Below, in pieces: positions 3,617-43,735 of a stretch of 50,868 bases of DNA (positions are counted from its first letter, which is position 1; each line of letters begins with the position of its first letter). The notes beneath the pieces are model-generated. The model ran no database searches and was not told where the DNA came from. It worked only from the letters and a program-made list of their open reading frames with translations. The DNA comes from Candidatus Nanoarchaeia archaeon (lineage in GTDB: Bacteria > Patescibacteriota > Microgenomatia > Woykebacterales > RBG-16-39-9b). A program made the position numbers and the translations under genes. The stretch is from assembly GCA_036514715.1 (NCBI GenBank), contig DATBWR010000006.1, forward strand, positions 1 through 50,868, in the 5' to 3' direction.

Positions 3617-3639
3617 ATTATATCACGCAGTGATACAAG
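3617..3639 (-). promoter_or_regulatory. Hairpin-embedded -10 element (CTTGTA-TCAC-tgc-GTGA-TATAAT)
   Basis: TATAAT lies 8 nt before the comM ATG. One of eight copies in the window. Confidence 0.7.
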
Positions 3640-3642
3640 AGG

Positions 3643-4290
3643 TTAAGGAAGTTCGAAGCTAACTTCAGCGTTTTCGTAAATTAGTTTGAATTCCTTTTCC
3701 TTAGTGGGGACAATGTAGGCAACAGTAATGCGCGTGGTTTCGCCCGAGTTAAGGCTGTATAACACTGGCTTTTCGGCTTCGTACCCAGCGGTGTATTGGT
3801 TGTCGTCACTGTCTTTCAAGCGGAAGCTGGCTGGACTGTAAGTTACTGCTGTATCTTTTTTATTCTTAAGGGCAATCTTAACATTTAGCAAAGATTGGTT
3901 GAAATACTCATCTTGCAAGTAGGCAGACTGAGAAGCGTTTTTTTCGTAATAATCTCTTTGCTCCCCCTTTTGTTTTTCATACACTCCGTCGATTTCCGCT
4001 TTTTCTAAAGTAATACTAATCCCGCTAAGAGTTTCTATTTCCTCGTTAATCTCACCTTTGATGATGCCTGCTGGTTCGGCTGGCTTAGTAGCTACTTTTG
4101 CTTTTTTCTCAAGTTGACTGTCAGCGGTTTGCCCGCTACCTTTACCAAGAAAGTAAGCACCGATTAGGGCAGTGATTATTAACAACGAACCTATACCAAG
4201 AGTTAAATAAAGTGTTTGTTTCTTGATTTCTATTATTTTGGGTTTGGGATTGAGGTTAACTACCTCGTCAGTTGGCGTCTCTTCTGGCAT
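3643..4290 (-). CDS. Membrane-anchored DUF4352-like (Ig-fold) protein
   Basis: Single TM helix, then VKIALKNKKDTAVTYSPASFRLKDSDDNQY and LNSGETTRITVAY. Confidence 0.7.
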   Translation of the reverse strand: MPEETPTDEVVNLNPKPKIIEIKKQTLYLTLGIGSLLIITALIGAYFLGKGSGQTADSQLEKKAKVATKPAEPAGIIKGEINEEIETLSGISITLEKAEIDGVYEKQKGEQRDYYEKNASQSAYLQDEYFNQSLLNVKIALKNKKDTAVTYSPASFRLKDSDDNQYTAGYEAEKPVLYSLNSGETTRITVAYIVPTKEKEFKLIYENAEVSFELP

Positions 4291-4352
4291 TAATTTAAAT
4301 TATCAACCCGAAATTGCCTTTGTGTCAACCGCCACCTTAGTAGAGTCGCGAA

Positions 4353-5507
4353 TTAAACGACCTTTTTGTCGCGGGCTAAAAGGTAAGTATCTCTCTTGGT
4401 TAAAACCAGTGCGCCCAGCGAGAAAACTGTGGCAAGAAAAGTGGTTAGGCCACCGATGATTGGCAAAAGTGTTACTAAGGCGTAAACCGCTAAACCAACC
4501 AGCAAGGTTAAAACCTCATTAACCTTGGCTTGGGTCAGAAGTAATTGGCCAACCAGGTAGACCACAAAAACTCTTGAAAGAAAAATAGCTATTCCATAGA
4601 TGGCCAGTAACATCAAACCAAGTGGAACACCTACCACCGTGACCATCAATACCACCGCAGCAACCGGAACCAAAATTAGGGTTAAAGCTCCCACTCCAAA
4701 TGAAAGCCACGGTCTATTCCTAAGATTTGCGACCGCTGCAGTGTTAAAAACCGGGAAGAATTTGATCAAGATTAGACCAACAACAAGGAGAGTGAACAAA
4801 CTAAGCAGTTTCAAAAAGAGTGCAAAGCCGGTAAGGACTCCTAAAACTTTTTCTTTTGAGGGTACCTCTTCAGGAGCGGGTGAGTTCTTGGTTACTGAAC
4901 CTGTGACCGTGGCGCCAGAGGCAATTGAGGCATCTTCCGTGCTCCAGTAAGTAATATTACCGGCAACAACGGCGCTAGGGGTCAAACGCAACGAACCAAC
5001 CCAAGCCTCAACATCCCCACCTACCTCCCCAGAAAGAGTAACGTTGCCGGCTCCTATTCTTATGTCCCCACCAACCGGGGCATTCAAGTTAATATTGCCT
5101 GCCCCCGCAACCACCGAACCACCAATACTAGCACCTTTGGTAACTTCGACAGAGCCTCCACCAACGGTTAGGTTGCGACCGATTTTTCCACCGATGGTTA
5201 CTTGGCCCCCGCCAACTCGTACATCTTGGTTAACTTCACCGTTGATAGTTACTTGCCCCCCACCAACTATCAAGTCTCCGTTAATCTTGCCTTCAACCAA
5301 AACTATACCAGCACCAGCATAAACATCACCATTAACCGTCCCAAAAATTTCGACCCGTTCGTTAAAAACAAAGTAGTCTTTATTAACAGTTTCGCCCGCA
5401 TTTAGTGTTGTTACCTCGGGTTTTCGAGAACTATCCTTACCAGCCTGTACTGAAGGGGTAACAAAAAGTAGTGTCAGAGCAATAAAAAATAGTAATATTT
5501 TTCTCAC
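4353..5507 (-). CDS. Polymer-forming (bactofilin-like beta-helix) protein with C-terminal multi-TM domain
   Basis: Signal peptide from GTG 5507, repeated GDxxxGGGxVxIxG units, hydrophobic C-terminus. The track start at 5600 runs through the rnpB terminator and was rejected. Confidence 0.8.
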   Translation of the reverse strand: MRKILLFFIALTLLFVTPSVQAGKDSSRKPEVTTLNAGETVNKDYFVFNERVEIFGTVNGDVYAGAGIVLVEGKINGDLIVGGGQVTINGEVNQDVRVGGGQVTIGGKIGRNLTVGGGSVEVTKGASIGGSVVAGAGNINLNAPVGGDIRIGAGNVTLSGEVGGDVEAWVGSLRLTPSAVVAGNITYWSTEDASIASGATVTGSVTKNSPAPEEVPSKEKVLGVLTGFALFLKLLSLFTLLVVGLILIKFFPVFNTAAVANLRNRPWLSFGVGALTLILVPVAAVVLMVTVVGVPLGLMLLAIYGIAIFLSRVFVVYLVGQLLLTQAKVNEVLTLLVGLAVYALVTLLPIIGGLTTFLATVFSLGALVLTKRDTYLLARDKKVV

Positions 5508-5551
5508 TCGCCAATGGTAATACTTTACTTTACTGTCTGTCAAGGAGTTCA

Positions 5552-5589
5552 CAAACAAAAAGCCCCTAAGCTCTACAGCTCGGGGCCTT
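5552..5589 (-). terminator. Intrinsic terminator of rnpB
   Basis: GCCCCGAGCT-GTAG-AGCTTAGGGGC hairpin followed by TTTTTGTTTG on the minus strand. Confidence 0.75.
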
Positions 5590-5594
5590 ATGTT

Positions 5595-5994
5595 GTTCAA
5601 AGGTAGTTGGTAAGCCAGATTCTGTTTTCCGCCAGTTGGCGGAGATGGAAATCTATCTAAGTGTGATCAAAAATGGTCACTCTTTTCGCCTTTTTAAGGC
5701 GAATGCCCTCGACTTCGGCACTTAGCAAGCAGCGTCAACATGCCGTTCGGAGGTTACACCAAGGCGGATTGCCCGTTTCACCCTTCGACCAAACGCTAAG
5801 ATCGAAGGCTACGTCTCTGTTGCTCTCGGAAGCTGTCATTTCAACTTCCGTGTTGCCATTTGTTTTAGCTAAACATTTGGCAACCACGAGGCTTTACAGC
5901 TAACTGCTTGCGCAGTTCACTTTGCTTTTTGGTGTCTGGACTTTCCTCTATCCACGCTTTCACGCAGACAGTATCCATCCCTCTACCTTTGAAC
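5595..5994 (-). ncRNA. rnpB: RNase P RNA
   Basis: GAGGAAAGTCCAG near the 5' end, ACAGAATCTGGCTTAC near the 3' end, and a 12-bp terminal P1 pairing (5595-5606 with 5983-5994). Confidence 0.95.
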
Positions 5995-6001
5995 GAGGCT
6001 A

Positions 6002-6030
6002 AGTATACCATAAATCAAGCTAAATTTCAA
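6002..6030 (-). promoter_or_regulatory. rnpB promoter
   Basis: TTGAAA-17-TATACT with TG extension, ending 7 nt before the RNA. Confidence 0.75.
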
Positions 6031-6083
6031 GTACTACCTACTTACAAGAAGTCTCCCTTTTATAAGCACTCGGGAACCTCGCG

Positions 6084-6107
6084 CTTGTATCCTCGGAAGG
6101 ATATAAT
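6084..6107 (+). promoter_or_regulatory. Hairpin-embedded -10 element (CTTGTA-TCCT-cgga-AGGA-TATAAT)
   Basis: TATAAT lies 8 nt before ATG 6116. Confidence 0.7.
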
Positions 6108-6115
6108 TAAGGATA

Positions 6116-7081
6116 ATGCCGGAAATTATTGTCTTCATTATCGGGTTAGCCGCAGCTATCCGCGGGGCGGACTGGGTCGGGTCTGCGGCTGTTAAATGGG
6201 CAAAGCAGCAGGGAGTGTCTCAAATTGTCGTTGGTGCCACCCTGGTTTCGTTTGCCACCACCCTACCGGAAATCTCTATTGCCACGATAGGCGGCTTGAT
6301 AAATAAAGATCCTCTGGTTGCATTAGGGGCTGTACTGGGATCACCTTTGGTAAATTTGGGTGTTATTCTAGGTATTTTATTTATTTTTTCCCGACGCCGA
6401 CCCTCTACCGGTTATTATCTGCGCGCTCTTAATATTTTTTTGGTCACCTGTCTTGTACTTTTAATACTCTCTTTTTATCGCCCCTTGGGTAATACGGTAA
6501 GTTTATTGTTTATTGCTCTGGGAATAATGTTTCTAGTTCTGGAATTTATTATTGGGAAGAGATCAATCGGCTCAGCGGAAACTGCCTTAAATCGTTTTGA
6601 AGGCCTTTTAAGTTTGTTTAGTTTTACTCGCGATCGAGCCTTGTTACTTGAATTTGTTCTTGGCGTTATTCTTCTGGGGGTTGGAAGCAAATTTATGGTT
6701 GACTCAACTATCTCAATTGCCAGCCTTTTGAAAATTGATGAGTTTTTTATTTCTGTTACGCTAGTAGCCATTGGAACTTCACTACCCGAATTTATCACTG
6801 CTGTTAATTCGCTAATTTATAAACGGGAGAGTTTGTCAGTGGGTAATTTGGTTGGTGCTTCGGTTATTGATATTACTCTAGGAACTGGGTTGGCCACTTT
6901 ATTTAAAGGGGCTACTCTTAGCTACCCAATTAACCTCTACATTTTTATTCCAATGATTATTATCGGTATTTTGTGCCTAGCTGCACTTTGGAAAAAATTA
7001 CCACTTGCTTTGGTTGGGGTTTCCTTAGTTGTTACTGCCGCAGCTTCCCTAGCTTTGTTTTCTCTGCAGACAGTCTTTTAG
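6116..7081 (+). CDS. Na+/Ca2+ antiporter, CaCA family (YrbG-like)
   Basis: Two alpha repeats, ATTLPE and GTSLPE, with GSPLVN and GASVID; about 10 TM helices. Confidence 0.9.
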   Translation: MPEIIVFIIGLAAAIRGADWVGSAAVKWAKQQGVSQIVVGATLVSFATTLPEISIATIGGLINKDPLVALGAVLGSPLVNLGVILGILFIFSRRRPSTGYYLRALNIFLVTCLVLLILSFYRPLGNTVSLLFIALGIMFLVLEFIIGKRSIGSAETALNRFEGLLSLFSFTRDRALLLEFVLGVILLGVGSKFMVDSTISIASLLKIDEFFISVTLVAIGTSLPEFITAVNSLIYKRESLSVGNLVGASVIDITLGTGLATLFKGATLSYPINLYIFIPMIIIGILCLAALWKKLPLALVGVSLVVTAAASLALFSLQTVF

Positions 7082-7082
7082 C

Positions 7083-8084: not shown

Positions 8085-8111
8085 GTATGATTATTCTAAC
8101 AAAACTAACGG

Positions 8112-9062
8112 CTATGTGCTAGTTTCCTCACTTAACCAATTTTTAACAAGGTCGCCTGTACGAAAAACTAAGTCAGTAGAGTTAAAGTCAAACCAATAAA
8201 TAGTCTTATCGCGCTTGTTCCAAGTCATCTGCCGCCGTACATAAGAATGGTGCTCGAATTTCATTCTTTGTTTGGCTTCTTCCAAACTTAGTTTGTGCTC
8301 AAGATACATTATTACTTGGCGATAACCTAATGACGTTAGGGCAGGTAGATTATGGTCGTACTTGGCAGCTAACCTGTCCACTTCTTCGACAAACCCTTGC
8401 TTAAACCACTGCTCAATCCGCTCGTCGATTTTTTGGTAAAGTTCCTCCCGACTGCCAGTCAAACCGGTTTTTAAAATATCAAAATCAGCCTTATATTTTT
8501 GTTGCAAAGCCGAGATAGGCTGGCCGGTCTGATAGTAAACTTCCAACGCGCGGGTAATTCGCCTTTTGTTATTTTTATCAATCCGCTCGAAAGTTGTTGG
8601 GTCAATCTTTTCCAAGTCGGAAAGTAGCAAGTCCAAAGATTTCTTTTCCAACTCACCCCGCAATCTCCAATCTGGGGCTGCCTTTGGTATCTTCAACCCT
8701 TCAGTAACTGCTTGGATATAAAGCCCTGTTCCACCCACAAGAATCGGCAACTTTCCCTGAGACTGAATCTCTTTTATCTTCTCCAGTGCCAACTGCTGAT
8801 AATCCGCCAAAGAGAATTTCTGGTCTGGGCTAACCACATCGTAAAGGTAAATAGGAATTCCGTTGACAGTCCACTTACCCAGTCCACTTTGAACTTTTAG
8901 CTTTGAGCTTTTGGCTTCTTTGCCGGTTCCAATGTTCATACCGACAAAGACTTGCCGGCTATCAGCACTCACTATCTCACCGTTGAATTTTTTGGCAAGT
9001 GAAAGCGCCAAAGCAGTTTTCCCAGTCCCGGTCGGACCAACAATCACTAAAAGTTTTTGCAT
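8112..9062 (-). CDS. miaA: tRNA dimethylallyltransferase
   Basis: GPTGTGKT, SADSRQV, VGGTGLY and YVRRQMTW motifs. Confidence 0.95.
   Translation of the reverse strand: MQKLLVIVGPTGTGKTALALSLAKKFNGEIVSADSRQVFVGMNIGTGKEAKSSKLKVQSGLGKWTVNGIPIYLYDVVSPDQKFSLADYQQLALEKIKEIQSQGKLPILVGGTGLYIQAVTEGLKIPKAAPDWRLRGELEKKSLDLLLSDLEKIDPTTFERIDKNNKRRITRALEVYYQTGQPISALQQKYKADFDILKTGLTGSREELYQKIDERIEQWFKQGFVEEVDRLAAKYDHNLPALTSLGYRQVIMYLEHKLSLEEAKQRMKFEHHSYVRRQMTWNKRDKTIYWFDFNSTDLVFRTGDLVKNWLSEETST
8882..8916 (-). repeat. Five degenerate heptamer repeats inside miaA
   Basis: agccaaa agctcaa agctaaa agttcaa agtggac, read as AKSSKLKVQSG. Confidence 0.7.
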
Positions 9063-9134
9063 GAGGATAATTTAACACAAATACGCAAGTTAAAAGCAGG
9101 CAACTCTCAGGTCGCAAGTGGTAAACTGTAACCA

Positions 9135-9962
9135 ATGGCTTTTAACCCAAATACGATTTGGCTTTCGCACTCTTCACTCAATGATTTTGAGAAGTGCCAC
9201 AAGCTTTACTATTTACGCAACCTCTACCGCGATAAACTTAAGGGTAACCGTTTCCGCATCCAAATTGCCAACCCTTATTTTTCGTTGGGGGAGGCGGTTC
9301 ACGATGCAATTGACCGGTTTGTAACTCGTTATCCGACTAGTGAGCGGGATAAAGACAAACTTTTTTATGAGTTTAAAAGAAGTTGGCAATTACGAGCTGG
9401 CAGGCGAGGCGGTTTTAAAGACAGCGCCCAAGAAGAATATTTTAAACAACGTGGGGAGGCTATGTTGGAAAGGTTTTACAAAAATTCAAGTTTTAGCAAA
9501 GGCCAAACTCTTAAAGTTGATTTCCCAAAATTGCCTTTAGTTGGTGAAGACGAAGTTGTTTTGGTGGGCAATTTTGATTGGCTGGAAAAAACATCTTCTG
9601 GTCTGCACATTCTGGATTTTAAAACTGGGACAAGTGAAGAGGAAGGTTCCCTACAGCTTCCAATTTACGCCCTTTTAGCTACCCATGTTTTAAAACTTCC
9701 AGTGGAAAAAGTAAGTTACTGGTATTTGGATCGGGATGATAAACCTAAAGAAGTGCCTCTGGGTGATTTAGACAGTGTTTTAGCTCAACTTAAGCAAAAG
9801 GCACAGGAAGTAGCTACGGTTATTGCCAAGCAAGATTTTACTGACAAGGCCCGGCCTTGTACAACTGATTGTGAAGCTTATCAAGCCGTGGTTGACGGTA
9901 AAGGTGAGTATCTTTTTACCGACTTCAACCGCAAACGCGAGGTTTTCTACCCAAATGTCTGA
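9135..9962 (+). CDS. PD-(D/E)XK nuclease superfamily protein (RecB-like)
   Basis: LSHSSLNDFEKC, GEAVHDA, GNFDWL...ILDFKTG and QLPIYAL motifs. Confidence 0.85.
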   Translation: MAFNPNTIWLSHSSLNDFEKCHKLYYLRNLYRDKLKGNRFRIQIANPYFSLGEAVHDAIDRFVTRYPTSERDKDKLFYEFKRSWQLRAGRRGGFKDSAQEEYFKQRGEAMLERFYKNSSFSKGQTLKVDFPKLPLVGEDEVVLVGNFDWLEKTSSGLHILDFKTGTSEEEGSLQLPIYALLATHVLKLPVEKVSYWYLDRDDKPKEVPLGDLDSVLAQLKQKAQEVATVIAKQDFTDKARPCTTDCEAYQAVVDGKGEYLFTDFNRKREVFYPNV

Positions 9963-10251
9963 TTATATTGTTGGATCTCGGCGGCCCAAGCCGGGTGACA
10001 GAGTGATTATTATTCAAAAGAAAAACTACGGTACTGAAAAATTTGACGAGGGAATAGTTACCAATGTCCTAACTTCTAAAGAGTTTCATCCGCGGGGACA
10101 TAAGGTACGTTTAACCAACGGAATCGTTGGGCGAGTTCAGAACTTTGCTGATCAAAAGGGTACAACTGCCCGACAACCCAAATACGAGAAAGAGGCCCAA
10201 ACAAACGACGAGCAGCCAAAGTACTTTCCAAGTGAAGATGATTTAGCCTGA
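9955..10251 (+). CDS. YwbE/DUF2196 family protein
   Basis: EGIVTNVLTSKEFHPRGHKVRLTNGIVGRV. Start reassigned to ATG 9955, overlapping the upstream stop. Confidence 0.85.
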   Translation: MSDYIVGSRRPKPGDRVIIIQKKNYGTEKFDEGIVTNVLTSKEFHPRGHKVRLTNGIVGRVQNFADQKGTTARQPKYEKEAQTNDEQPKYFPSEDDLA

Positions 10252-10261
10252 AAACCTACGT

Positions 10262-10330
10262 TTTGCACAAAGTGCAAAAGGCAAGCTTCTGAGAGAAATT
10301 TGCTAAACTAACTGAAAGCAAATTTCGAAC
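10262..10330. terminator. Two hairpins between convergent ywbE and hup
   Basis: TTTTGCAC/GTGCAAAA and GAAATTTGCT/AGCAAATTTC inverted repeats. Confidence 0.55.
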
Positions 10331-10336
10331 AGGTGC

Positions 10337-10612
10337 TTACTTGCGCACACTTTTCTTAATACTTTTGGCAGCAATAAACCCAATCGTGTTCATCTGCGGT
10401 AGCTGCAGAGATTGGCCAGTTTTTGGGTTTCGTCCAGTCCGCGCCTTTCTTCCTCGGATAACAAAGGTGCCGAAGCCGGAGATGACCACTTTCTCACCCT
10501 TTTTTAAGGAATCTTCAATAAAATCAAAGGTGGCATCAACCGACTCTTTAGCCGCTTTTCTAGTTAAACGAACCTCTTTGGCAACTTTTTCGATAATATC
10601 TACTTTTAACAT
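10337..10612 (-). CDS. hup: HU family DNA-binding protein
   Basis: GFGTF...RKARTGRNPKTG motif. Confidence 0.95.
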   Translation of the reverse strand: MLKVDIIEKVAKEVRLTRKAAKESVDATFDFIEDSLKKGEKVVISGFGTFVIRGRKARTGRNPKTGQSLQLPQMNTIGFIAAKSIKKSVRK

Positions 10613-10690
10613 TTTTCACCTCCCTTCGACTTGTTCAACAAGCCTTACTTTAACTCTACAGTAAATATCTTGTTAAATCAAGACAAATAA

Positions 10691-10714
10691 ATATATGAAT
10701 GTTTATTCATATAT
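10691..10714. repeat. 24-bp palindrome ATATATGAAT-GTTT-ATTCATATAT (copy 1 of 4)
   Basis: Perfect 10-4-10 inverted repeat, recurring at 19666, 46287 and 50292. Confidence 0.85.
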
Positions 10715-10728
10715 CGTGCTTGGGCGCG

Positions 10729-11520
10729 TTATTCAGGTATTAATTCATCGATCCTCTTGATCGCCTTAGCTTTCATCTTGCTTTCAGTTTCGATCAAAAC
10801 CGAGCGAAAAAGGGTTGGACCCTCCTCCACCCATTCAAATTTGACCGGCTCTGTGTCTTTCTGTTTTTTAATAATAATCTGGGGCTCTACCCCTAAAACT
10901 GAATGTAGTGCTCCGCTCATACCGATATCGGTCACAAAGGCAGTTCCACCCGGCATAATCCAAGGGTCAGCACTCGGAACATGGGTATGAGTTCCCAAAA
11001 CTGCCGTTACCCGACCGTCCAAAAACCACCCCATAGCAGCCTTTTCACTGGTTGCCTCGGCATGAAAATCGACAATTACAAAATCGGGTTTTTCCTTTTT
11101 CACCTGATCCAAAAGTATTGTATCAACAGTACGGTAAGGCTCCTCAGTTGGGCCTTCCATCCATTGCCTACCAATAATATTAATAACCAAAACTTTTTTT
11201 GTGCCGATCTTAACAATCGTAAAGCCAAACCCCGGGCTATCAGAGGGGTAGTTGGCCGGGCGGATCACGGTTGGATCGCTATCCAGAGTTTGGTTGAATT
11301 CAGGTTTAAACCAAATGTGGTTGCCACTAGTAAAAATATCCACTCCGTACTCCCGCAGTTCATCAACTCGCTCGGCTGTTGCCCCTTTACCATGAGAAAG
11401 ATTTTCGATATTGGCAATCACCAAATCGATTTTTTCTTTTTTACGCAAGTTAGGAAGCACTTCGGCTACTGCCTTACGGCCAAGTTTTGCAACTACATCA
11501 CCAATTATTAAAATCTTCAT
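10729..11520 (-). CDS. ymdB: YmdB/TIGR00282 metallophosphoesterase
   Basis: GDVV, NIENL, SGNHIW, DFHAEATSEK and GTHTHV motifs. Confidence 0.95.
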   Translation of the reverse strand: MKILIIGDVVAKLGRKAVAEVLPNLRKKEKIDLVIANIENLSHGKGATAERVDELREYGVDIFTSGNHIWFKPEFNQTLDSDPTVIRPANYPSDSPGFGFTIVKIGTKKVLVINIIGRQWMEGPTEEPYRTVDTILLDQVKKEKPDFVIVDFHAEATSEKAAMGWFLDGRVTAVLGTHTHVPSADPWIMPGGTAFVTDIGMSGALHSVLGVEPQIIIKKQKDTEPVKFEWVEEGPTLFRSVLIETESKMKAKAIKRIDELIPE

Positions 11521-11521
11521 C

Positions 11522-14930: not shown

Positions 14931-15071
14931 TAAAAATTTCCCTTTCGGGCAAGTGTATTTTGTCGGACATTAATGACACCATAGCACAAAGAAAAAGGTC
15001 AGACAACGGCCTCTTTTTGGGTCAAACTACTACTACTTTTGGTGTATAAAACTCTTCGCAAAAGCTCGACT

Positions 15072-15095
15072 CTTGTATCTCTGACGCGATATAAT
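15072..15095 (+). promoter_or_regulatory. Hairpin-embedded -10 element upstream of tRNA-Pro
   Basis: CTTGTA-TCTCTGACGCGA-TATAAT, 9 nt before the tRNA. Confidence 0.7.
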
Positions 15096-15104
15096 TAGCG
15101 AATT

Positions 15105-15178
15105 CGGGGAGTAGTATAGTGGTAATACACCGCGCTGGGGGTGCGGTATCGGGAGTTCAATCCTCCCCTCCCCGACCA
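15105..15178 (+). tRNA. tRNA-Pro(GGG)
   Basis: Acceptor CGGGGAG/CTCCCCG, anticodon loop CT-GGG-GG, T-loop GTTCAAT, encoded CCA. Confidence 0.95.
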
Positions 15179-15577: not shown

Positions 15578-15601
15578 ATTTTAGCACTTTGGTGTTAGAA
15601 T
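15578..15601. promoter_or_regulatory. Back-to-back extended -10 promoter
   Basis: ATTTTAGCA-CTTTGG-TGTTAGAAT gives TGtTAGAAT on + (7 nt before ATG 15609) and TGcTAAAAT on -. Confidence 0.6.
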
Positions 15602-15608
15602 TCGAACT

Positions 15609-16019
15609 ATGAGTAAGGAAAATAAACTAGTAGTTGAGATTAATAAGTCTCCAAAAGAGGTTTTTGAATTTTCTCTTAATCCTGCCAATACTCCTAAGTG
15701 GTTAGATTTTATAGTTAAAGAAGAAACCAACGAATGGCCAGTAAAAATAGGGACTATTTACAGAAACCAAAACAAAGAAGGAGTTTGGACGAAGTATGTT
15801 GTTACAGAATTTAAAGAAAATGAAATGTTCGTCCTAACCCCAAAAGATGGAAACTATCAAGTTAAATACACTCTAAAACCACTTGGGAAAAATAAAACTG
15901 AGTTGGAATACTACGAATGGGTCGATGAAGGTGAGCTTGAAGAACCTTTTACCATAGAGGTATTGAATAAGTTAAGGTCAGTTATGCAAGGAGAAAGCGA
16001 TTTAGGTTCTCAGGGCTGA
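15609..16019 (+). CDS. SRPBCC/START-like family protein
   Basis: [14 protein letters not shown]...NTPKW pattern typical of polyketide-cyclase-like folds. Confidence 0.7.
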
Positions 16020-17426: not shown

Positions 17427-17533
17427 AATGGCCTTTCTTCCTATTCAAGTGTTTGGTGAATTTTAACAGAAAGTAGCCTAAAATGCAACTATAGGATAAT
17501 TTCTAGGGGCTTGTTAAGATTGTTTATACTGAG

Positions 17534-18343: not shown

Positions 18344-18772
18344 TCATTCTGTCGTCTGTTCCTTGAAAGGTGGGATATCTTTCCATAATTGGCTCTTATC
18401 GTCTGGATCCCCAGAGTTGTAATTGACTGTAATCTCCTCATCCTTGTTTATATCCTTAATTGCTCCAAACTCTATTACCTTGTCTTTTGAAATCTTTTTG
18501 TATGTGGCGTTGGGTTTGTAAGAGTGGTTGTAAAGAGCACCGAAACCCAAAGCTATGACAAGTAGATCTTTGTTATCTTCAAAAGAAAAATAATATTTCA
18601 CGAGAATACTTTCCTTCAAATTAGATAAATCATCCATTGGTACCTCGATAACAGGGCAGATTTCGATAACTTCATTCTTTTTTATATCTTTGGAGGCAAA
18701 AACCCCTCTTCCCGCGTTTTTTATTTTTGATTTCGATAAATATATTTTCTTAGATGGATAGAAGGTTTTCAT
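18344..18772 (-). CDS. SET domain-containing protein
   Basis: GRGVFASKDI, LYNHSYKPN and EEITVNY motifs. Start set at ATG 18772, 7 nt after the -10 box. Confidence 0.92.
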   Translation of the reverse strand: MKTFYPSKKIYLSKSKIKNAGRGVFASKDIKKNEVIEICPVIEVPMDDLSNLKESILVKYYFSFEDNKDLLVIALGFGALYNHSYKPNATYKKISKDKVIEFGAIKDINKDEEITVNYNSGDPDDKSQLWKDIPPFKEQTTE

Positions 18773-18779
18773 AGCTGAC

Positions 18780-18803
18780 ATTCTAGCACTCTGGTGGTAA
18801 AAT
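18780..18803. promoter_or_regulatory. Back-to-back extended -10 promoter (SET / nnrD)
   Basis: ATTCTAGCA-CTCTGG-TGGTAAAAT; each -10 box is exactly 7 nt from a start codon. Confidence 0.7.
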
Positions 18804-18810: not shown

Positions 18811-19614
18811 GTGGACGAAAGAGAAATTTTAGCAGCTGATTTAAAGGATCTTTACCAACCACCAACTGTTTCCCGCAAAGGTGAGAACGGAAAGGTTTTT
18901 ATTATCGGCGGCAACGAGCATTATCATGGTGCTCCCCTTTTTTGTGCAAAAATTGCCAGCAAAATTGTTGATCTGGTCTTTTTCTCCTCAGTTGCCGAAA
19001 ATAACGTCTTAGTAAGAAAAATGAGATCGGGGCTAGCTGATTTTATTGTGATTGATAGAGCCGACGTTTATGACGAAGCAGCGAGAGTAGATGTTATTTT
19101 AATCGGCCCGGGTATGGGCACCGGAGACGACACTAAAGAAATAACCGATGGGCTACTGAAAAAATTCCCTGATAAAAAATTTGTGCTGGATGCCGACGCC
19201 CTGCGGGTTTTAGATAAGTCTCTGCTAAATAAAAACTGTGTTGTTACTCCCAACCGACAGGAGTTTAAGATTTTGTTTGGTCAGGATGCTGCCAAAGTAA
19301 CAACGCAAGAGGCAGCAAAAAAATATAATTGTATTGTAGTTGCCAAAGGACCCGAGACTTATGTCAGCGACGGTGAAAGCTTGAGAATTAACCAAACTGG
19401 TAACGCTGGTATGACCAAGGGTGGAACTGGCGACGTGCTAGCCGGCTTGATTGCAGGGCTCTCTTGCAAAAACGACTTATTTTTAGCCTCGTGTGCTGCT
19501 GTGTTCATCAACGGAACCGCTGCCGATGCCCTCAAGGAAAAGGTTTCCTATTATTTCAACGCCAGCGATTTGATCGAAGAAATTCCTGCAACCATGAAAA
19601 AATTACTCACCTAG
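18811..19614 (+). CDS. nnrD: NAD(P)H-hydrate dehydratase (YjeF C-terminal domain only)
   Basis: IGPGMG, VLDADAL, VVTPNRQEF and GMTKGGTGDVLAG motifs. Confidence 0.92.
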   Translation: MDEREILAADLKDLYQPPTVSRKGENGKVFIIGGNEHYHGAPLFCAKIASKIVDLVFFSSVAENNVLVRKMRSGLADFIVIDRADVYDEAARVDVILIGPGMGTGDDTKEITDGLLKKFPDKKFVLDADALRVLDKSLLNKNCVVTPNRQEFKILFGQDAAKVTTQEAAKKYNCIVVAKGPETYVSDGESLRINQTGNAGMTKGGTGDVLAGLIAGLSCKNDLFLASCAAVFINGTAADALKEKVSYYFNASDLIEEIPATMKKLLT

Positions 19615-19849: not shown

Positions 19850-20776
19850 GTGGAAATACTCTTTCTTCTCCTTACAGTCTTAGGTCTTTCTCTTTTTGAG
19901 ATTATTACCAGCATCGATAACGCCATCATCAACGCTGAGGTGCTCGGTGGTATGAGCCAAAGAGCGCGGCGGTGGTTTTTGCTTTGGGGCTTTTTGTTTG
20001 CGGTTTTTGTCGTTCGGGGCTTGCTTCCTTTTCTCATTGTCTGGATCGCCAATCCCACGATTGGTCCGATCGGAGTCATTACCGCTGCTTTTTCTAACGA
20101 CCCAGCGATAATAGAGGCAATCGAAGCTTCCTCACCGCTCTTACTAATCGGTGGAGGGGTTTTCCTCGTCTTTCTCTTTTTCAACTGGATTTTTTTGGAA
20201 CCAAAAAGCTACGGATTAAAGGGTGAAGCGTTTTTTCATGCCCAAGGAGCCTGGTTTTTTGCAGTTGTCTCTATTTTACTCACAATTATTGTCTGGTTTG
20301 CGCTCCAGAAGGGGCCGATGCTAGGGTTTGCCGCGGTAGTTGGTTCGACTGCCTTTTTCATAATTCACGGGTTTCGACAGTTTGCTGAAGAGCAAGAGAA
20401 AAGACTTATGAGCGGTAACATGTCAGACGTCGCCAAAATTGCTTACTTAGAAGTTCTTGATTCGACTTTTTCAATCGATGGAGTGATCGGCGCTTTTGCC
20501 TTTACCTTTTTAGTCCCGTTAATCTTAGTCGGTAACGGATTAGGAGCCTTAGTTTTGAGAAAGTTAACAGTCAGTAACATTGAGAGAATTAAACGCTATA
20601 AATATCTGAAGAACGGGGCAATGTATTCTATCCTTTTCCTAGGCACAATTATGATCTTAGACAGCTTTGGTTTTCATTTTCCGCCTTGGTTTTCACCGCT
20701 AATCACTTTTGGAACAGTTGGTTATTTCTTTTATAAATCAAAAGTCGCTTTGGCAAAAGTGGAAGAAGCGGTATAG
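19850..20776 (+). CDS. DUF475 (TerC-related) membrane protein
   Basis: SIDNAIINAEVL, YLEVLDSTFSIDGVIGAFA and YLKNGAMYSI motifs. Confidence 0.9.
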   Translation: MEILFLLLTVLGLSLFEIITSIDNAIINAEVLGGMSQRARRWFLLWGFLFAVFVVRGLLPFLIVWIANPTIGPIGVITAAFSNDPAIIEAIEASSPLLLIGGGVFLVFLFFNWIFLEPKSYGLKGEAFFHAQGAWFFAVVSILLTIIVWFALQKGPMLGFAAVVGSTAFFIIHGFRQFAEEQEKRLMSGNMSDVAKIAYLEVLDSTFSIDGVIGAFAFTFLVPLILVGNGLGALVLRKLTVSNIERIKRYKYLKNGAMYSILFLGTIMILDSFGFHFPPWFSPLITFGTVGYFFYKSKVALAKVEEAV

Positions 20777-20878
20777 GTCTTCGACTCTTGTACCGCTGCA
20801 CGGTATAAGCATCTTCAATTCTTGTATCGTAGGAACGATATAATCATCTTCGACGCTTGTATCTCGATGCGATATAAT
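20777..20878 (+). repeat. Three tandem ~35-bp units, each ending in a CTTGTA-hairpin-TATAA(T/G) element
   Basis: Elements at 20787-20809, 20821-20844 and 20856-20878; the last TATAAT is 7 nt before ATG 20886. Confidence 0.85.
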
Positions 20879-20885: not shown

Positions 20886-21413
20886 ATGAACTCTTTTAAG
20901 GGTTTTAGTTCTTCAACCTACATCATCGCTGTTTTATTTGTACTGGTTCTGATTTCCGCCGGGCTTTACACCCTAAACTTTAGAGAGGGAGAGCCAGAAC
21001 CCCTTGCTCAAACTCCGCCGGAAACCAATAGTGAGTCTGAAAGCGCGTCGCAAACTGCCAGCGAGCCAGAGACTACACCTACACAACCCCAAGAAGGAGC
21101 AAAAACAACTCCTGAAGTCCCACCAGCATCTCAAGTCCCTTCAACCTCTGCACTAATAACCTTTAATGGAGATGGTTTCTCCCCCTCTTACGTTGCTATA
21201 AGTGCGGGTGGGACGTTGAGTGTCCGAAATGCCTCGGGAAACTCTTTGGCCTTTCAAAGTGATCCGCACCCAACCCACGATTGCAACCCGGAACTTAACT
21301 TGGGAAATGTTTATCCCGGACAGACTGTTTCAGTCACTTTGACTGCAGTTAAAGCTTGCGGAGTCCACAACCACTTTAACCCAACTCAGACGGCAACAGT
21401 AACTGTAAGTTAG
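20886..21413 (+). CDS. Membrane-anchored cupredoxin-like domain protein
   Basis: TM helix, P/T/E-rich linker, then FSPSYVAISAGGTLSVRN...HPTH...CGVHNH. Confidence 0.65.
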   Translation: MNSFKGFSSSTYIIAVLFVLVLISAGLYTLNFREGEPEPLAQTPPETNSESESASQTASEPETTPTQPQEGAKTTPEVPPASQVPSTSALITFNGDGFSPSYVAISAGGTLSVRNASGNSLAFQSDPHPTHDCNPELNLGNVYPGQTVSVTLTAVKACGVHNHFNPTQTATVTVS

Positions 21414-25694: not shown

Positions 25695-25803
25695 CTGCTC
25701 GCTAACGCGAGTAGATCGCTTTGCGCTCTGCAGCCTACCGGCTGTAGAATTCGACAACAGTCATCTGCGAGTTCTGCTCCCTATCGGGAGTAGAATTCGA
25801 CAA
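25695..25803. repeat. REP-like mosaic of three CTGC-N4-TANC-N4'-GTAG hairpins overlapping the rpsD stop
   Basis: Hairpins at 25695-25714, 25728-25747 and 25774-25793; exact 14-nt duplication GTAGAATTCGACAA at 25744 and 25790. Confidence 0.8.
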
Positions 25804-36892: not shown

Positions 36893-36989
36893 TTTCGTCT
36901 TCGAAAATATCGACCGTAATATAAATTTTTACTATCTTCTTAGATTGCATCCTGTTTCTCAAAAACAACTTCTTGGTCGATATAATTTC

Positions 36990-37289: not shown

Positions 37290-37293
37290 TCTT

Positions 37294-38794: not shown

Positions 38795-38826
38795 ATTTCC
38801 ATGCAGTAGCGACTATTCCAAACACG

Positions 38827-38850
38827 AAAAAAAGCCTTTTTTAGGCTTTT
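38827..38850 (-). terminator. Terminator-like hairpin between rpsJ and rplC
   Basis: AAAAGCC-TAAAAAA-GGCTTTTTTT on the minus strand. Confidence 0.5.
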
Positions 38851-38880
38851 CTCTAGAGAGACTTATCGCTTAACCCTAAG

Positions 38881-39189
38881 TTACATCTTTATTTCAATGT
38901 CAACTCCGGCCGGAAGCTCTAAATGCATAAGAGCGTCCAAAGTTTTCGGAGTCGGTTCGATAATATCAATGAGTCTCTTGTGAGTCCTAATCTCAAATTG
39001 TTCCCGAGCATCTTTATCTACATGGGGAGAAGTGGTTACCGTAAAACGTTCCTTATCCGTAGGTAAGGGGACCGGACCGGCTACCTTGGCACCAGTGCGG
39101 ATAGCGGTATCCAAAATCTCTTCTGCAGAGTCGTCGATGACTCTGGAATCATATGACTTTAAACGTACTCGAATACGACCTTTTGGCAT
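38881..39189 (-). CDS. rpsJ: 30S ribosomal protein S10
   Basis: [17 protein letters not shown] and [14 protein letters not shown] motifs. Confidence 0.98.
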
Positions 39190-39203
39190 ATAAAGTTCTT
39201 CTC

Positions 39204-39237
39204 AAAAAAGGCGCTCCGCTTCTAAAAAGCGGAGTGT
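39204..39237 (-). terminator. Intrinsic terminator after tuf
   Basis: ACACTCCGCTT-TTTAG-AAGCGGAGCGC followed by CTTTTTT on the minus strand. Confidence 0.75.
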
Positions 39238-39240
39238 TCC

Positions 39241-40431: not shown

Positions 40432-40544
40432 GTATTTTTAATCCTCCTAAATATTTTTAATAATTTTAGCTTCAAGTCGAAGCTAGATTTTTACAACACA
40501 TGTATTCTAACAGATTAAGTCAACAAGTACAGCCCTTAGTTTGC

Positions 40545-42659
40545 TTAAGAGCTCTCTTGCCTACTACTTTTAGAAATTAAACTGTTAGTTACACTACTCG
40601 GCGCCTCCTGGTAGTGCGATGGTTCCATGTTGGAACTGGCTCGACCTTGGCTCATACTGCGCAGAGTTGTCACATAACCGAACATTTCCGCAAGAGGCGC
40701 CAAAGCGCGCACCACACGCACATTACTTCTTTGTTCAGTCCCTTCAATTTGGGCACGTTTGCTGGATAAATCACCGATAACATCACCCAAAAACTCTTCC
40801 GGCGTGATCACTTCGACTTTCATAATCGGCTCAAGGATCACCGGGTTGGCTGCTTTTGTCGCATCTTTCAGAGCCATAGAACCGGCAATTTTGAAGGCAA
40901 ATTCGCTACTATCAACTTCATGGAAAGACCCGTCGTAAACTGCTACTTTCATATCCACCATAGGATAACCGGCCAGGACACCAGTGTCCATGGCTTCTTT
41001 AACGCCTTTTTCAATCGGGTTAATAAATTCTTTCGGAATCGCTCCACCGACAACTTCGCTGACAAATTCGTAACCTTCACCTCTGGCCTTTGGTTCAACT
41101 CTCAGGAAACAATGGCCGTATTGGCCCCGGCCGCCGGATTGGCGGATGTATTTGCCTTCTCCTTGGGCAACCTTCTGCACAGTTTCTTTGTAGGCTACTT
41201 GCGGTCGCCCAACATTAGCCTCAACACTAAACTCTCGCTTCATCCGGTCCACAATAATTTCCAGATGCAGTTCTCCCATACCGGAAATAATCGCCTGCCC
41301 GGTTTCCTGATTAGTTTTGACATTAAAAGTGGGGTCTTCCTCGGAAAGTTTGGCCAGTGCCAAACCCATTTTTTCCTGATCGCTTTTAGTTTTAGGCTCA
41401 ATCGCTAGGGAAATAACCGGCTCCGGAAAAGTAATTTTTTCCAAAACCACTGGTCTTGCCTCATCACAAAGTGTGTCTCCAGTAAAAGTTTCTTTCAAAC
41501 CAACCGCCGCACCAATTTCCCCTGACCCAATTTCGTTAATTTCTTCCCGATTGTTAGCATGCATGAGGAGAATTCGCCCCAAACGCTCTTTAACATTTTT
41601 TGTAGCGTTGTAGAGATAGCTCCCAGCGGTAGTTTTTCCGGAATAAACTCTAAAGTAGGTCAGCCGCCCGACAAAAGGGTCGGTCATAACTTTGAAAGCA
41701 AAGGCGGCAAAAGGTTCACTGTCGTCGGTTTTGCGAACTTCTTCACCTTCAGTTTTGGGGTTAACCCCTTTTACTGAGGGGACATCCAGAGGAGAGGGGA
41801 GATAATCAATCACGGCATCAAGCAGAGGTTGGACACCTTTGTTTTTCAAAGCGCTTCCGGCCAGTACCGGCACGATTTTGTAGCCAATTGTAGCGGCCCG
41901 CAACCCGGTAACCAACTCTTCTTCAGTTAAATCTTGCCCGCCCAGATATTTTTCTAAGAGGTCGTCGTTTTGTTCGGCAACTGCTTCAACCAGTTGCGAG
42001 CGGTATTTCTCAACCTCGTCTTTCATGTCAGCGGGTACTTCCCCACTTTGTGGTTCTTTACCCAGATCTTCAGTATAGATAATTGCCTTGCGGCGGATAA
42101 GATCAACCACTCCTTTAAAGCCGTTTTCAGTTCCAATCGGAAGTTGAATTGGGTGGGCATTGGCACCAAGTCTTTCTTTAATAGAAGCGAGCGACATGTA
42201 AAAATCGCCTCCGATAGCATCCAGTTTGTTAATAAAACAGATACGCGGAACGTGGTATTTATCCGCTTGGCGCCAGACAGTTTCGGACTGGGGCTCCACT
42301 CCCATTTTGCCGTCGAAAACCACTATCCCACCGTCCAAAACCCGCAAAGACCGCTCCACCTCAGCCGTAAAATCTACGTGTCCAGGCGTATCAATTATAT
42401 TAATGCGGTGTCTTTGATTCTTGTTGGGGCCTGTCTGTGTGGTCCAAAAAGTAGTGGTCGCTGCACTAGTAATGGTAATACCCCGCTCTCTCTCTTGGGC
42501 CATCCAGTCCATAACTGCTTCACCTTTGTGCACCTCACCGATTTTGTAAGTGCGACCAGTGTAAAACAAAATACGCTCAGTCACGGTAGTCTTACCCGCG
42601 TCAATATGCGCTATGATACCTATATTTCTAATTTTGTCTAAGCTTAAGTCCTTTGCCAT
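40545..42659 (-). CDS. fusA: Elongation factor G
   Basis: [15 protein letters not shown] and DTPGHVDF motifs; start set at ATG 42659. Confidence 0.99.
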
Positions 42660-42673
42660 TAGTTTTTCTTTCC

Positions 42674-42696
42674 AAAAAAGCACCCTTCCGGTGCTT
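42674..42696 (-). terminator. Terminator-like hairpin between rpsG and fusA
   Basis: AAGCACC-GGAAG-GGTGCTT-TTTT on the minus strand. Confidence 0.5.
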
Positions 42697-42722
42697 AGGG
42701 GCAGTTTATTTAACTACCCTAC

Positions 42723-43199
42723 TTACCATCTAAAGTGTGCAAATGCCTTGTTAGCTTCGGCCATGCGGTGAGTATCGTCGCGCCTCTTAATTGCTAAGCC
42801 AGTGTTGTTAGCTGCATCCATAAATTCGGCAGCCAGCTTATCGGCAGTGGTTTTATAGTCTGTACTGGGTCGGCTCTTGGCCGCAGTAATGATCCAGCGG
42901 ATTGCCAAAGCTTCTTTTCGATCGCCCCTTACTTCCAGTGGGACTTGGTAGCTGGCTCCACCAATCCGTCGGGGTTTAACTTCCATGCGTGGGGAAACGT
43001 TTTTCAGGGCGTTTTCGAAAACTTCCAGAGGATTTTGTTTCTTTTCCTCGATTTTTTTAAGAGCGTCGTACAAAACTTTTCGGGCCGTGCTTTTCTTACC
43101 AGCGGACATTAAGCGGTTGGTGAAGCGGGCAATCAAGCGACTGCCATAAACAGGGTCTCCTTCAACTTTTCTTTTTACTACTCGTCCGCTTCTTGGCAT
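42723..43199 (-). CDS. rpsG: 30S ribosomal protein S7
   Basis: RIGGASYQVP and HRMAEANKAFAH motifs. Confidence 0.98.
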   Translation of the reverse strand: MPRSGRVVKRKVEGDPVYGSRLIARFTNRLMSAGKKSTARKVLYDALKKIEEKKQNPLEVFENALKNVSPRMEVKPRRIGGASYQVPLEVRGDRKEALAIRWIITAAKSRPSTDYKTTADKLAAEFMDAANNTGLAIKRRDDTHRMAEANKAFAHFRW

Positions 43200-43200
43200 T

Positions 43201-43617
43201 TTACTTTTCCTTCATCCTTTTGGCCCCGTATAAGCTACGGCCCTGCTTACGACTGGCCACGCCGCTGGTATCGTAATGACCGCGAATAACATGATACTTT
43301 ACTCCCGGCAAATCCTTGACTCGGCCGCCTCTTACTAAAACAATGGAGTGTTCCTGCAATTCATGGCCAATTCCCGGAATGTAGGCAGTCACCTCTTTCC
43401 GGTTGGAAAGGCGAACACGGGCAACTTTCCGCAGAGCCGAATTTGGTTTTTTCGGAGTCATGGTTTTGACGATCACGCAAACTCCCCGTTTTTGCGGGTT
43501 GAAAGTGGCAACCGGCCGGCGTTCCCTAGTGTTGAAACTGGAACGCAAGGCAGTAGCCTTAATTTTTTTAGCAGCGTGTGTACGTCCCTTACGGACTAAT
43601 TGTGCAATTGTAGGCAT
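43201..43617 (-). CDS. rpsL: 30S ribosomal protein S12
   Basis: [11 protein letters not shown] and [12 protein letters not shown] motifs. Confidence 0.99.
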
Positions 43618-43629
43618 AGTACGTGGAGA

Positions 43630-43735
43630 ATTATAACCTTCTTAGGTTACAAGACCCGAAGGGGATTATACCATTTCTGACGGTACAAGCGCCCTGAACG
43701 AGGGTGATTATATCTGGAGTGAGCCTAACTGTCAA
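43630..43735 (-). promoter_or_regulatory. str operon promoter: canonical TTGACA-17-TATAAT plus two tandem hairpin -10 elements
   Basis: TTGACA at 43735-43730 and TATAAT at 43712-43707; CTTGTA...TATAAT units at 43665-43689 and 43630-43653. Confidence 0.8.

Follow-up and report, generated by a model that had tools for sequence, protein, structure and literature searches.

A species-specific family of short covarying hairpins with a probable −10 box in one arm, from a Microgenomates bacterium

Which process places the same small palindrome in front of a ribosomal protein operon, a tRNA gene and several unrelated genes, and keeps the two arms of that palindrome complementary while their sequence changes? 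The question is raised by a stretch of 50,868 nucleotides (nt), hereafter the window, which forms one end of a 194-kb metagenomic contig from a bacterium of the candidate phyla radiation (CPR/Patescibacteria), Microgenomates group, with 'Candidatus Woykebacteria' as its nearest placement. The window contains eight hairpins in which CTTGTA opens the 5′ arm and a TATAAT hexamer closes the 3′ arm, and all eight lie within 1 nt of the coordinates, and on the strands, given by an earlier reading of the same DNA (the original prediction), with the stems described there (Table 1). The DNA read for this species amounts to ~66 kb, comprising the window and ~15 kb of extra flank. Because identical copies of the window sequences (100% identity) recur in independent ENA, Logan and JGI assemblies, the cassette sequence is not an assembly artefact.

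Pattern and covariation of the hairpins

The pattern CTTGTA-N10-14-TATAA has eight exact matches in the window, compared with 0.16 ± 0.39 expected from 100 dinucleotide shuffles (maximum 2). Every copy has the same layout, in which CTTGTA is followed by an arm of 3–4 nt, a loop of 3–5 nt, the complementary arm and the hexamer, which is TATAAT in seven copies and TATAAG, without T at its sixth position, in one distal copy of an array. The hairpins are 23–25 nt long and all intergenic, with stems of 9 bp and loops of unconserved sequence, and tandem copies are all in direct orientation with a period of 34–36 nt. Fourteen bases are fixed across the copies, which diverge strongly outside them. The 5′ foot reads (T/G)CTTGTA, and CTTGTA itself is invariant in eight of eight copies, including a C that is unpaired and a G that is wobble-paired. 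On the sense strand the stem carries this fixed G·T together with a C·T at its base, whereas on the complementary strand the fixed wobble becomes A·C.

The fixed arms enclose four positions, here called the inner stem; these are paired in 29 of 32 cases, compared with 12.7 ± 2.6 in spacer shuffles (0 of 100,000), a comparison that had been set beforehand as a check of the original prediction. In the aligned copies 95.8% of cells are paired, and three variable pairs, each changed on both sides, yield 10 compensated cells, where shuffles that preserve the columns give 3.5 ± 1.3 (0 of 500). When the 3′ partner is shifted by 1–3 columns, pairing falls to 25–47%. In an additional invariant pair, absent from the original prediction, the C at position 8 meets the G that precedes TATAAT by two nt, and the −13 position is Watson-Crick paired in all eight copies through three pair types. 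The cells of the variable stem that are not Watson-Crick pairs comprise one G·T and three non-wobble mismatches; the TCTC/GCGA stems (tRNA-Pro unit and array unit c) carry a T·C mismatch, and the CCGT/ATGG stem of rpsL unit a carries a G·T. The covariation is real, and an ordinary operator is, as the original prediction argued, insufficient to explain the conserved pairing.

A covariance model built from the eight copies scored its members at 30–39 bits, and the next hits, at 16 bits or less, were their own reverse strands. With filters off, this model found no degenerate member between 16 and 30 bits in the window and no further copy in the ~15 kb of extra flank or in the nearest relatives. 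Because the eight copies score 30–39 bits and everything else reaches at most 16, the family is all-or-none. Two stretches that had been proposed as weaker relatives, at 6024–6048 and 40504–40527, score below 9.8 bits, have no inner pairing and do not belong to it. As controls, 90 outer-pattern matches in unrelated viral contigs (84 chance loci in the scan) average 1.5 of 4 inner pairs, and one-mismatch look-alikes within the window have 0–1. Rfam 15 returned no match at the gathering threshold and, around the arrays, only noise at E ≤ 10.

Several familiar kinds of element were considered and rejected. The operator of a dimeric regulator with degenerate half-sites is rejected by the column-preserving shuffles (0 of 500) and is also contradicted by a right half that departs consistently from the mirror image of the left. 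For an intrinsic terminator, a T run after the stem is missing on either strand. Type III toxin-antitoxin repeats, a CRISPR-like array and attC sites were rejected on anatomy, with single copies at three loci and no associated genes.

Table 1. Hairpin units, their linkers and neighbouring hexamers, and two divergent −10 pairs for comparison (window positions; bits refer to the covariance model)
Feature	Position	Strand	Sequence and context
Unit comM	3617–3639	−	CTTGTA-TCAC-TGC-GTGA-TATAAT; 8 nt before comM (YifB) ATG at 3608; 35.2 bits
Older −10-like hexamer upstream of CaCA unit	6061–6066	+	TATAAG; context CTTTTATAAG common to relative L164
CaCA linker, 17 nt	6067–6083	+	CACTCGGGAACCTCGCG; begins CAC and ends GCG, as does the rpsL-a linker
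Unit CaCA	6084–6107	+	CTTGTA-TCCT-CGGA-AGGA-TATAAT; 8 nt before Ca2+/Na+ antiporter ATG (6116); 36.8 bits
Older −10-like hexamer, tRNA-Pro locus	15045–15050	+	TATAAA; context TGTATAAAA
tRNA-Pro linker, 21 nt	15051–15071	+	ACTCTTCGCAAAAGCTCGACT; holds TCGACT, a 4/6 −35, 18 bp from the unit's TATAAT
Unit tRNA-Pro	15072–15095	+	CTTGTA-TCTC-TGAC-GCGA-TATAAT; 9 nt before tRNA-Pro(GGG) 5′ end at 15105; 36.0 bits
−10-like hexamer over TAG stop of upstream TerC-family gene	20772–20777	+	TATAGG; followed by 9-nt linker TCTTCGACT
Array unit a	20787–20809	+	CTTGTA-CCG-CTGCA-CGG-TATAAG; sole copy with G as last hexamer base; 30.3 bits
Array linker a-b, 11 nt	20810–20820	+	CATCTTCAATT
Array unit b	20821–20844	+	CTTGTA-TCGT-AGGA-ACGA-TATAAT; 39.1 bits
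Array linker b-c, 11 nt	20845–20855	+	CATCTTCGACG; C-G at positions 7–8 past the hexamer; its TCGACG is a 4/6 −35, 17 bp from the TATAAT of unit c
Array unit c (proximal)	20856–20878	+	CTTGTA-TCTC-GAT-GCGA-TATAAT; 7 nt before ATG of ORF 20886-21413; 32.3 bits
rpsL unit b (proximal)	43630–43653	−	CTTGTA-ACCT-AAGA-AGGT-TATAAT, then TCTCCACG-TACT-ATG; 35.8 bits
rpsL linker a-b, 11 nt	43654–43664	−	CCCCTTCGGGT
rpsL unit a	43665–43689	−	CTTGTA-CCGT-CAGAA-ATGG-TATAAT; 32.4 bits
rpsL-a linker, 17 nt	43690–43706	−	CACCCTCGTTCAGGGCG
P1, ancestral rpsL promoter	43707–43737	−	TGTTGACA-N17-TATAAT; hexamers of perfect consensus
Divergent extended −10 pair (comparison element, not a family member)	15578–15601		ATTTTA-GCACTTTGGTGT-TAGAAT; TAGAAT 7 nt before ATG at 15609
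Divergent extended −10 pair (comparison element, not a family member)	18780–18803		ATTCTA-GCACTCTGGTGG-TAAAAT

Position at genes and comparison with relatives

All copies are directly oriented toward a gene, and together they serve five transcription units with no evident common function. For one of these genes, open reading frame (ORF) 20886-21413 (175 aa), the earlier label 'cupredoxin-like' was not borne out, with no match in Pfam or NCBIfam. TAnnnT hexamers in the window peak at 6, 7 and 8 nt before start codons (3, 5 and 5 genes, compared with about one per offset elsewhere). This leaderless-type geometry is found at 13 of 62 window genes, three hairpin units among them, and many window genes look leaderless on this basis. 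The usual promoter form in the genome is an extended −10, TGnTA(A/G)AAT, to which TTGACA at 17–18 bp is sometimes added, while the tuf, rpoA and HU genes have a normal Shine-Dalgarno leader instead.

The gene-proximal TATAAT of the units lies 7–12 nt before the gene, as originally reported, and the distance of 12 nt at rpsL implies a 5-nt leader. Ahead of TATAAT, the invariant G occupies −14, the position on which an extended −10 chiefly depends. The claim that these copies have no good −35 stands for four of the eight units, where the match is poor; in the other four, four of six −35 positions match at 17–18 bp (TCGACT/TCGACG in three and TTAACC at 18 bp in the comM unit). Inside arrays the hexamer is followed by a pyrimidine-rich 7-mer, with C-G (5 of 7) or C-A at positions 7–8, plausibly a start-site context. 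Because the leaderless geometry is common to other window genes, and because a plain −10 precedes the orthologues in relatives, the TATAAT of the units is very probably a working −10. As a separate observation, the position of tRNA-Pro(GGG) 9 nt past TATAAT (window 15096–15105; 13–17 nt in relatives) predicts a primary transcript with a leader of only 0–2 nt.

The nearest relatives compared were L164, L168 and L170 (ComM 75–81% identical), L258–L261 (RecA 86–88%), and L262 and L264 (S12 89–91%). The motif is absent from all of them, from 80 Microgenomates rpsL loci on genome contigs and from 80 metagenomic comM loci, among which there were only distant relatives, and the hairpin family is specific to the window species among the relatives sampled. 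Orthologous genes of the relatives are preceded at 8–17 nt by a plain −10 with no hairpin. A plain TATAAT without hairpin is found 7–14 nt before the CaCA ATG, −10-like hexamers lie 7–8 nt before comM in L168 and L170, and the syntenic tRNA-Pro(GGG) is preceded by TGTATAAT or TGATATAAT at 13 nt (L258, L259) or by CATATAAT at 17 nt (L260). These plain boxes argue that the TATAAT of the units is the −10 and that the hairpin form is derived in the window lineage. A general class of −10-embedding hairpins in Microgenomates was rejected, with sporadic matches only and no family; in a histogram of hexamer-Nk-mirror-hexamer arrangements across 2.3 Mb of related genomes, no more than a slight rise at k = 12–13 is seen.

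At rpsL, L262 and L264 keep the hexamers and spacing of P1, and downstream of it come TCCCCACG, a leader hairpin and ATG. The window has 77 nt past P1 (linker and unit a, linker and unit b) before TCTCCACG and TACT-ATG are reached, and TCTCCACG is identical to the post-P1 TCCCCACG of the relatives at seven of eight bases. Exactly two units thus stand between the conserved −35 side and the conserved start-region side of rpsL. For the CaCA gene, the sequence in L164 is CTTTTATAAG-TATAAT-N8-ATG, whereas in the window CTTTTATAAG is followed by 35 nt (linker, CTTGTA and stem-loop) and then by TATAAT-N8-ATG. The tRNA-Pro locus retains TGTATAAAA (compare TGTATAAT in L259), followed by a 45-nt unit, and the gap between recA and tRNA-Pro measures 174 nt in the window compared with 129 and 136 nt in relatives. 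The gap between the upstream co-directional DUF4352 gene and comM is 34 nt, compared with 9 nt in L164, and is filled by the comM unit. The hexamers that remain upstream at loci with a single unit have no final T (TATAAG, TATAAA, TATAGG). From these arrangements it would appear that cassettes of 35–45 nt bounded by TATAAT were added right after existing −10 boxes and multiplied in tandem.

Two observations concern the linkers themselves. The 17-nt linkers (6067–6083; 43690–43706 on the − strand) could form 4-bp mini-hairpins of their own, CGGG-AAC-CTCG and CCCT-CGTTC-AGGG, and the 11-nt linkers share the pattern CAYCTTCGRSK. The leader of rpsL also differs between species. In L262 and L264, 45–57 nt upstream of rpsL, the predicted mRNA opens with a conserved stem-loop, CTACC-N6-7-GGTAG, directly past P1 and lacks a Shine-Dalgarno sequence; this leader is lost from the window species, and L264 has a heliorhodopsin gene immediately upstream of rpsL. 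A descent of the units from this leader hairpin was rejected, because the local similarity (ACCTA-G-AAGGT) is not significant (random window hits score higher; p ~0.02 in 2 of 14 tests).

A broad scan for −10-like hexamers within hairpin arms also brought up back-to-back divergent −10 pairs of the form ATTnTA-N12-13-TAnAAT, of which the window holds four, ~4.6 times their density in 2.3 Mb of related genomes. In the pair at 18780–18803, a start codon lies 7 nt from either hexamer (GTG at 18811 on the + strand, ATG on the − strand). Further pairs, at 17460–17484 and 49977–50001, have no inner pairing, and an example from a relative lies at L258:9129. These pairs share with the family the hexamer-N11-13-hexamer geometry, the mirrored G at −14 and a TAnAAT 7 nt from a start codon, and their geometry accounts, with no need of any structure, for the spacing, the C-G pair and the outer complementarity. 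Unlike them, the family has a mirror hexamer that is TACAAG in eight of eight copies, without the essential final T, has no divergent gene at three of five loci (comM, ORF 20886 and rpsL), and is chained. At −13, where the family is always Watson-Crick paired, the true divergent pairs have G·T, G·G and C·A. The divergent-pair geometry does not explain the covariation at positions free of promoter contacts, nor does it explain the invariant TACAAG, the loci without a divergent gene or the chaining. Beside this subject we note that the region 18344–18781 encodes a bacterial SET-domain protein, and that the pair at 18780 moves the likely start of its gene to an ATG 9 nt inside the longest ORF.

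Other features of the window and its relatives

A bacterial class A RNase P RNA gene lies at window 5595–5990 (− strand). It spans the full model and scores 91.4 bits (E = 1.6e-28), slightly below the Rfam gathering score of 100, and was missed by a default gathering scan. Its 5′ block (GTATCCATCC…GAACGAG on the + strand) is kept in all relatives and is divergent to the CaCA gene. A tandem 46-nt duplication at window 25726–25795, at the rpsD 3′ end and in the rpsD-rpoA spacer, covers the last codons (…VEFYSR) and the stop. Each copy holds a 10-bp hairpin in which the outer arms are identical and the inner arms are fully compensated (TCCC/GGGA vs AGCC/GGCT), the change in the left arm being a synonymous swap of Ser codons (TCC to AGC). 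These hairpins fold more strongly on the + strand (−43 vs −33 kcal/mol), where each ends in TAGAAT followed by TCGACAA.

Directly upstream of rpsL, an island of low GC content (36–38%) occupies window 43,900–50,868 (also L255 7,000–14,000). It carries small genes for GIY-YIG, Fic, MazE/PIN and VRR-NUC proteins, an HTH_3 regulator, RadC, a MazG-like protein and DUF2283, and looks like a defence or mobile island at the place where many Microgenomates have rpoB/rpoC. In L165–L167 (ComM 77%), at ~8,360–11,450, comM is N-terminally shortened (482 aa), is overlapped by a gene for a 564-aa serine recombinase and stands at the edge of a ~10-kb island with a DNA methylase, an AAA_15/AAA_21 ATPase and an HTH protein, which looks as if it had integrated into the comM 5′ end.

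Explanations weighed, and their meaning

We consider it probable that the eight hairpins are a species-specific family of short palindromic promoter cassettes which, in duplex DNA, act as ordinary sigma-70-type core promoters. TATAAT with its invariant G at −14 would be the −10 box, launching leaderless mRNAs of comM, CaCA and ORF 20886, an rpsL operon mRNA with a 5-nt leader and a tRNA-Pro with next to no leader. On the other strand the left hexamer would read as a fixed dead box, TACAAG, and because this box lacks the essential last T the cassette would fire one way only. Cassettes of 35–45 nt bounded by TATAAT would have been added directly past pre-existing −10 hexamers, an addition that would leave the old hexamer upstream and the −10-to-start distance unchanged, and tandem chaining would have produced the two units at rpsL and the three before ORF 20886. 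The sequences directly show the pattern, its covariation, its restriction to this lineage and the geometry of its positions; promoter activity, insertion and the mechanism of copying are what we infer from them.

Because the arms covary, one strand must fold at some stage. We suggest, tentatively and with considerable reservation, that the hairpin is not needed for initiation and matters while the cassette is single-stranded DNA (ssDNA), for its copying and upkeep. In one version, hairpin-stimulated template-switching during replication would use TATAAT as microhomology, and intrastrand quasi-palindrome correction would keep the arms complementary; in another, a hairpin-recognising HUH-type enzyme would be involved, with CTTGTA acting like a guide paired to TATAA as the cleavage or target site. 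The mismatches at the stem base would be kept by selection against an antisense promoter. Bolder forms of the idea, in which the cassette is a minimal self-targeting ssDNA element (HUH-type) that inserts at −10 boxes and regenerates a −10 at its 3′ end, or in which RNA polymerase reads the stem in a structure-dependent sigma-70 initiation, we regard as quite unlikely.

Several observations weigh against a family of inserted and copied promoter cassettes. The ~66 kb of the species yielded no transposase, HUH enzyme or other candidate factor, and the unknown ORFs gave no trans-factor, their matches being to a SET domain, a SWEET-like protein, a cyclase-like protein and NAD(P)H-hydrate dehydratase. 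The copies are far from identical outside the fixed arms, unlike those of a recently active mobile element, and they occupy both strands of one replichore, unlike the lagging-strand-biased insertions of IS200/IS605. Insertion is deduced from three loci in comparison with distant relatives whose intergenic DNA is poorly alignable, and all extra contigs of the species represent one strain (100% identity), which offers no presence/absence polymorphism to compare. Quasi-palindrome correction leaves the invariant G (stem position 3, G·T) and the C at the base (eight of eight) unexplained, and these two bases point to sequence-specific recognition of CTTGTA by something.

The main competing explanation, which we hold to be unlikely, is that the unit works in RNA, as a 5′-proximal stem-loop in transcripts that start from the hexamer of an upstream unit or arrive by read-through, where it would stabilise the mRNA or provide a processing site before a start codon without Shine-Dalgarno sequence. 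The start G would lie ~8 nt past the upstream hexamer and 3–4 nt before the stem, with the 3′ arm doubling as the next −10. Pairing is indeed better on the sense strand (the fixed G·U and one more, compared with A·C on the other strand), the units fold at −3.8 to −10 kcal/mol as RNA compared with 0 to −5.3 kcal/mol as ssDNA, and for the array leaders folding is stronger than in shuffled sequences (z −3.0 and −2.3). Seven of the eight units lie downstream of a −10-like hexamer with a C-G/C-A start context or of a co-directional gene; the rpsL mRNA of the relatives would likewise open with a 5′ stem-loop (CTACC…GGTAG) right past its predicted start, and the tandem hairpins at the rpsD 3′ end, compensated under coding constraint, indicate that pairing is kept at a second, unrelated site. 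Yet the leaderless transcript of the proximal promoter would not contain the hairpin, the upstream hexamers at single-unit loci lack the last T and comM has none at all, and exact placement at −10 hexamers is given no reason. Pairing alone would allow left arms such as TTATA or TTGTG, but CTTGTA with its unpaired C is invariant; the variable stem, with its one G·T and three non-wobble mismatches, has no wobble bias, and Rfam has no match. The invariance of CTTGTA in all eight units, including the unpaired C and the wobble G, is what would be predicted for a protein-recognised box at 12 ± 1 bp from the −10, to which an alternative sigma factor, an activator or a repressor specific to the lineage would bind, with palindromy secondary; the −30 box of T4 MotA middle promoters follows such a logic. 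A spacing tolerance of 11–13 that resembles −35/−10 tolerance, the half of the units without a usable −35 and the all-or-none character of the family, as of a regulon signal, fit this idea. We nevertheless think it distinctly doubtful, as it leaves the covariation at three positions unexplained (0 of 500 shuffles), would join five transcription units without evident common function and has no candidate factor in the window, and the units look like added blocks rather than sites evolved in place.

A promoter that depends on structure, as the original prediction proposed, would use negative supercoiling to extrude a hairpin or cruciform and so switch the embedded −10 for growth-related genes (ribosomal proteins, tRNA). 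The covarying stem does include the −10, and the genes include the str/S10 operon and a tRNA, classes that are sensitive to supercoiling in model bacteria; the comM unit, moreover, has no obvious route of transcription other than read-through. A cruciform needs both strands, and it is unlikely because the ssDNA folds are weak, with two copies at about 0 kcal/mol, and because the complementary strand has A·C at the fixed position. Mismatched 9-bp stems are also short for extrusion, and pairing would bury the very −10 bases that sigma must capture, so that we judge this mechanism very unlikely. The analogy to promoters of the N4 virion RNA polymerase likewise fails on their defining features. 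Those promoters serve a dedicated single-subunit phage polymerase and have a 5–7-bp stem, a 3-nt loop with conserved bases and no −10 hexamer; our units resemble them as DNA hairpins with a conserved base and a variable stem at transcription start regions, but have 9-bp stems, unconserved loops of 3–5 nt and a perfect TATAAT in the 3′ arm, and no single-subunit phage RNA polymerase was found in the ~66 kb of the species. A short-spacer promoter, also put forward originally, is unneeded, given that an extended −10 is the usual form and that a 4/6 −35 at 17–18 bp is present in half of the units. It is extremely unlikely that the units are nothing special, that is, decayed back-to-back divergent −10 pairs whose hairpin is a by-product of mirrored elements. 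The genome does have four true N12-13 pairs, in two of which a mirrored TG produces CAC…GTG pairing, exactly the inner stem of the comM unit. Against this, the mirror hexamer TACAAG is invariant rather than decaying, divergent genes are missing at comM, ORF 20886 and rpsL, the positions −13, −15 and −16 are paired with compensatory changes in the family and not in true divergent pairs, and eight matches stand against 0.16 expected. This last reading is largely refuted by the column shuffles and the divergent-pair comparison.

Mobile promoters are known as a concept (PMC3575422). The Correia/CREE, ERIC and REPIN elements and the putative mobile promoters (PMPs) of Matus-Garcia, Nijveen and van Passel (PMC3575422, PMC2649163) are, like the cassettes, short, intergenic, species-restricted repeats that provide unrelated genes with promoter elements, can fold into hairpins as single strands and are able to rewire expression. 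Unlike them, all cassette copies are directly oriented toward a gene. Correia elements are ~100–155 nt long, compared with 23–25 nt (35–45 nt with linker) for the units, which have no terminal inverted repeats and no TA duplication, although the flanking TATAA repeats could instead be read as a duplication like those of Correia elements and other miniature inverted-repeat transposable elements. In the units the −10 itself is a stem arm, and the copies share 14 invariant bases rather than at least 80% identity over 50 nt.

The palindromes of the REP/BIME systems with their TnpAREP (RAYT) transposases (PMC8266576) are similar in their size of 20–50 nt, conserved 5′ foot, intergenic and often tandem position and conserved stem mismatches, and are recognised as folded ssDNA. 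The units differ from them in having no GTAG tetranucleotide (TTGTA is followed by T, C or A), no alternation of REP and iREP, and positions at gene 5′ ends with promoter geometry rather than mostly at 3′ ends; eight copies were found in the ~66 kb of the species (REPs number hundreds per genome) and no tnpAREP gene. The guide and cleavage-site logic of hairpin transposases has been described (PMC3201880, PMC8266576), and IS608-type insertion occurs 3′ of a fixed short target without duplication (PMC3201880). As at the ends of IS200/IS605 elements such as IS608, the unit is an imperfect one-strand hairpin with a 5′ sequence complementary to a 3′ site (TTGTA/TATAA), and units at rpsL, CaCA and tRNA-Pro stand directly 3′ of a fixed short sequence (TATAAT, TATAAG, TATAAA), which, in a comparison with distant genomes, may have been a target. 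In the units, however, guide and site form a continuous Watson-Crick stem rather than a distant non-canonical network, there is one hairpin instead of two ends, no lagging-strand bias is seen and the copies have diverged; a Y1 HUH transposase (TnpA) was not found in the ~66 kb of the species. We found no precedent for the cassette described in the literature. Of the three options originally raised, the tiny promoter-carrying mobile element gains most, through the older hexamers beside the units at rpsL, CaCA and tRNA-Pro and the absence of the motif from relatives, while the lack of a transposase in that DNA and the divergence of the copies speak against it.

The finding is statistically solid and the −10 reading is well supported. 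What stays unusual is a species-specific palindromic promoter cassette, with sharp family limits and covarying arms, which seems to have been copied to −10 boxes already in place and to have accumulated there in tandem. If this is true, it would be the smallest promoter-carrying repeat of which we are aware and among the cleanest, a 35-nt block with its own −10 that lands at existing −10 boxes with the start site preserved and chains into tandem promoters, here before the most highly expressed operon of an uncultured CPR bacterium with a reduced genome. The family would then illustrate how streamlined genomes that depend on leaderless transcripts duplicate and rewire their core promoters, and would provide a natural, compact series of promoters with orthogonal stems for studying the effect of spacer palindromes on initiation. 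It may also serve as a test bed for separating three sources of covariation in non-coding DNA, namely RNA structure, recognition of ssDNA hairpins and quasi-palindrome correction. Should the cassette be a self-targeting ssDNA element, it would be a mobile element that seeks out promoters, leaves them intact and builds up tandem promoter arrays.

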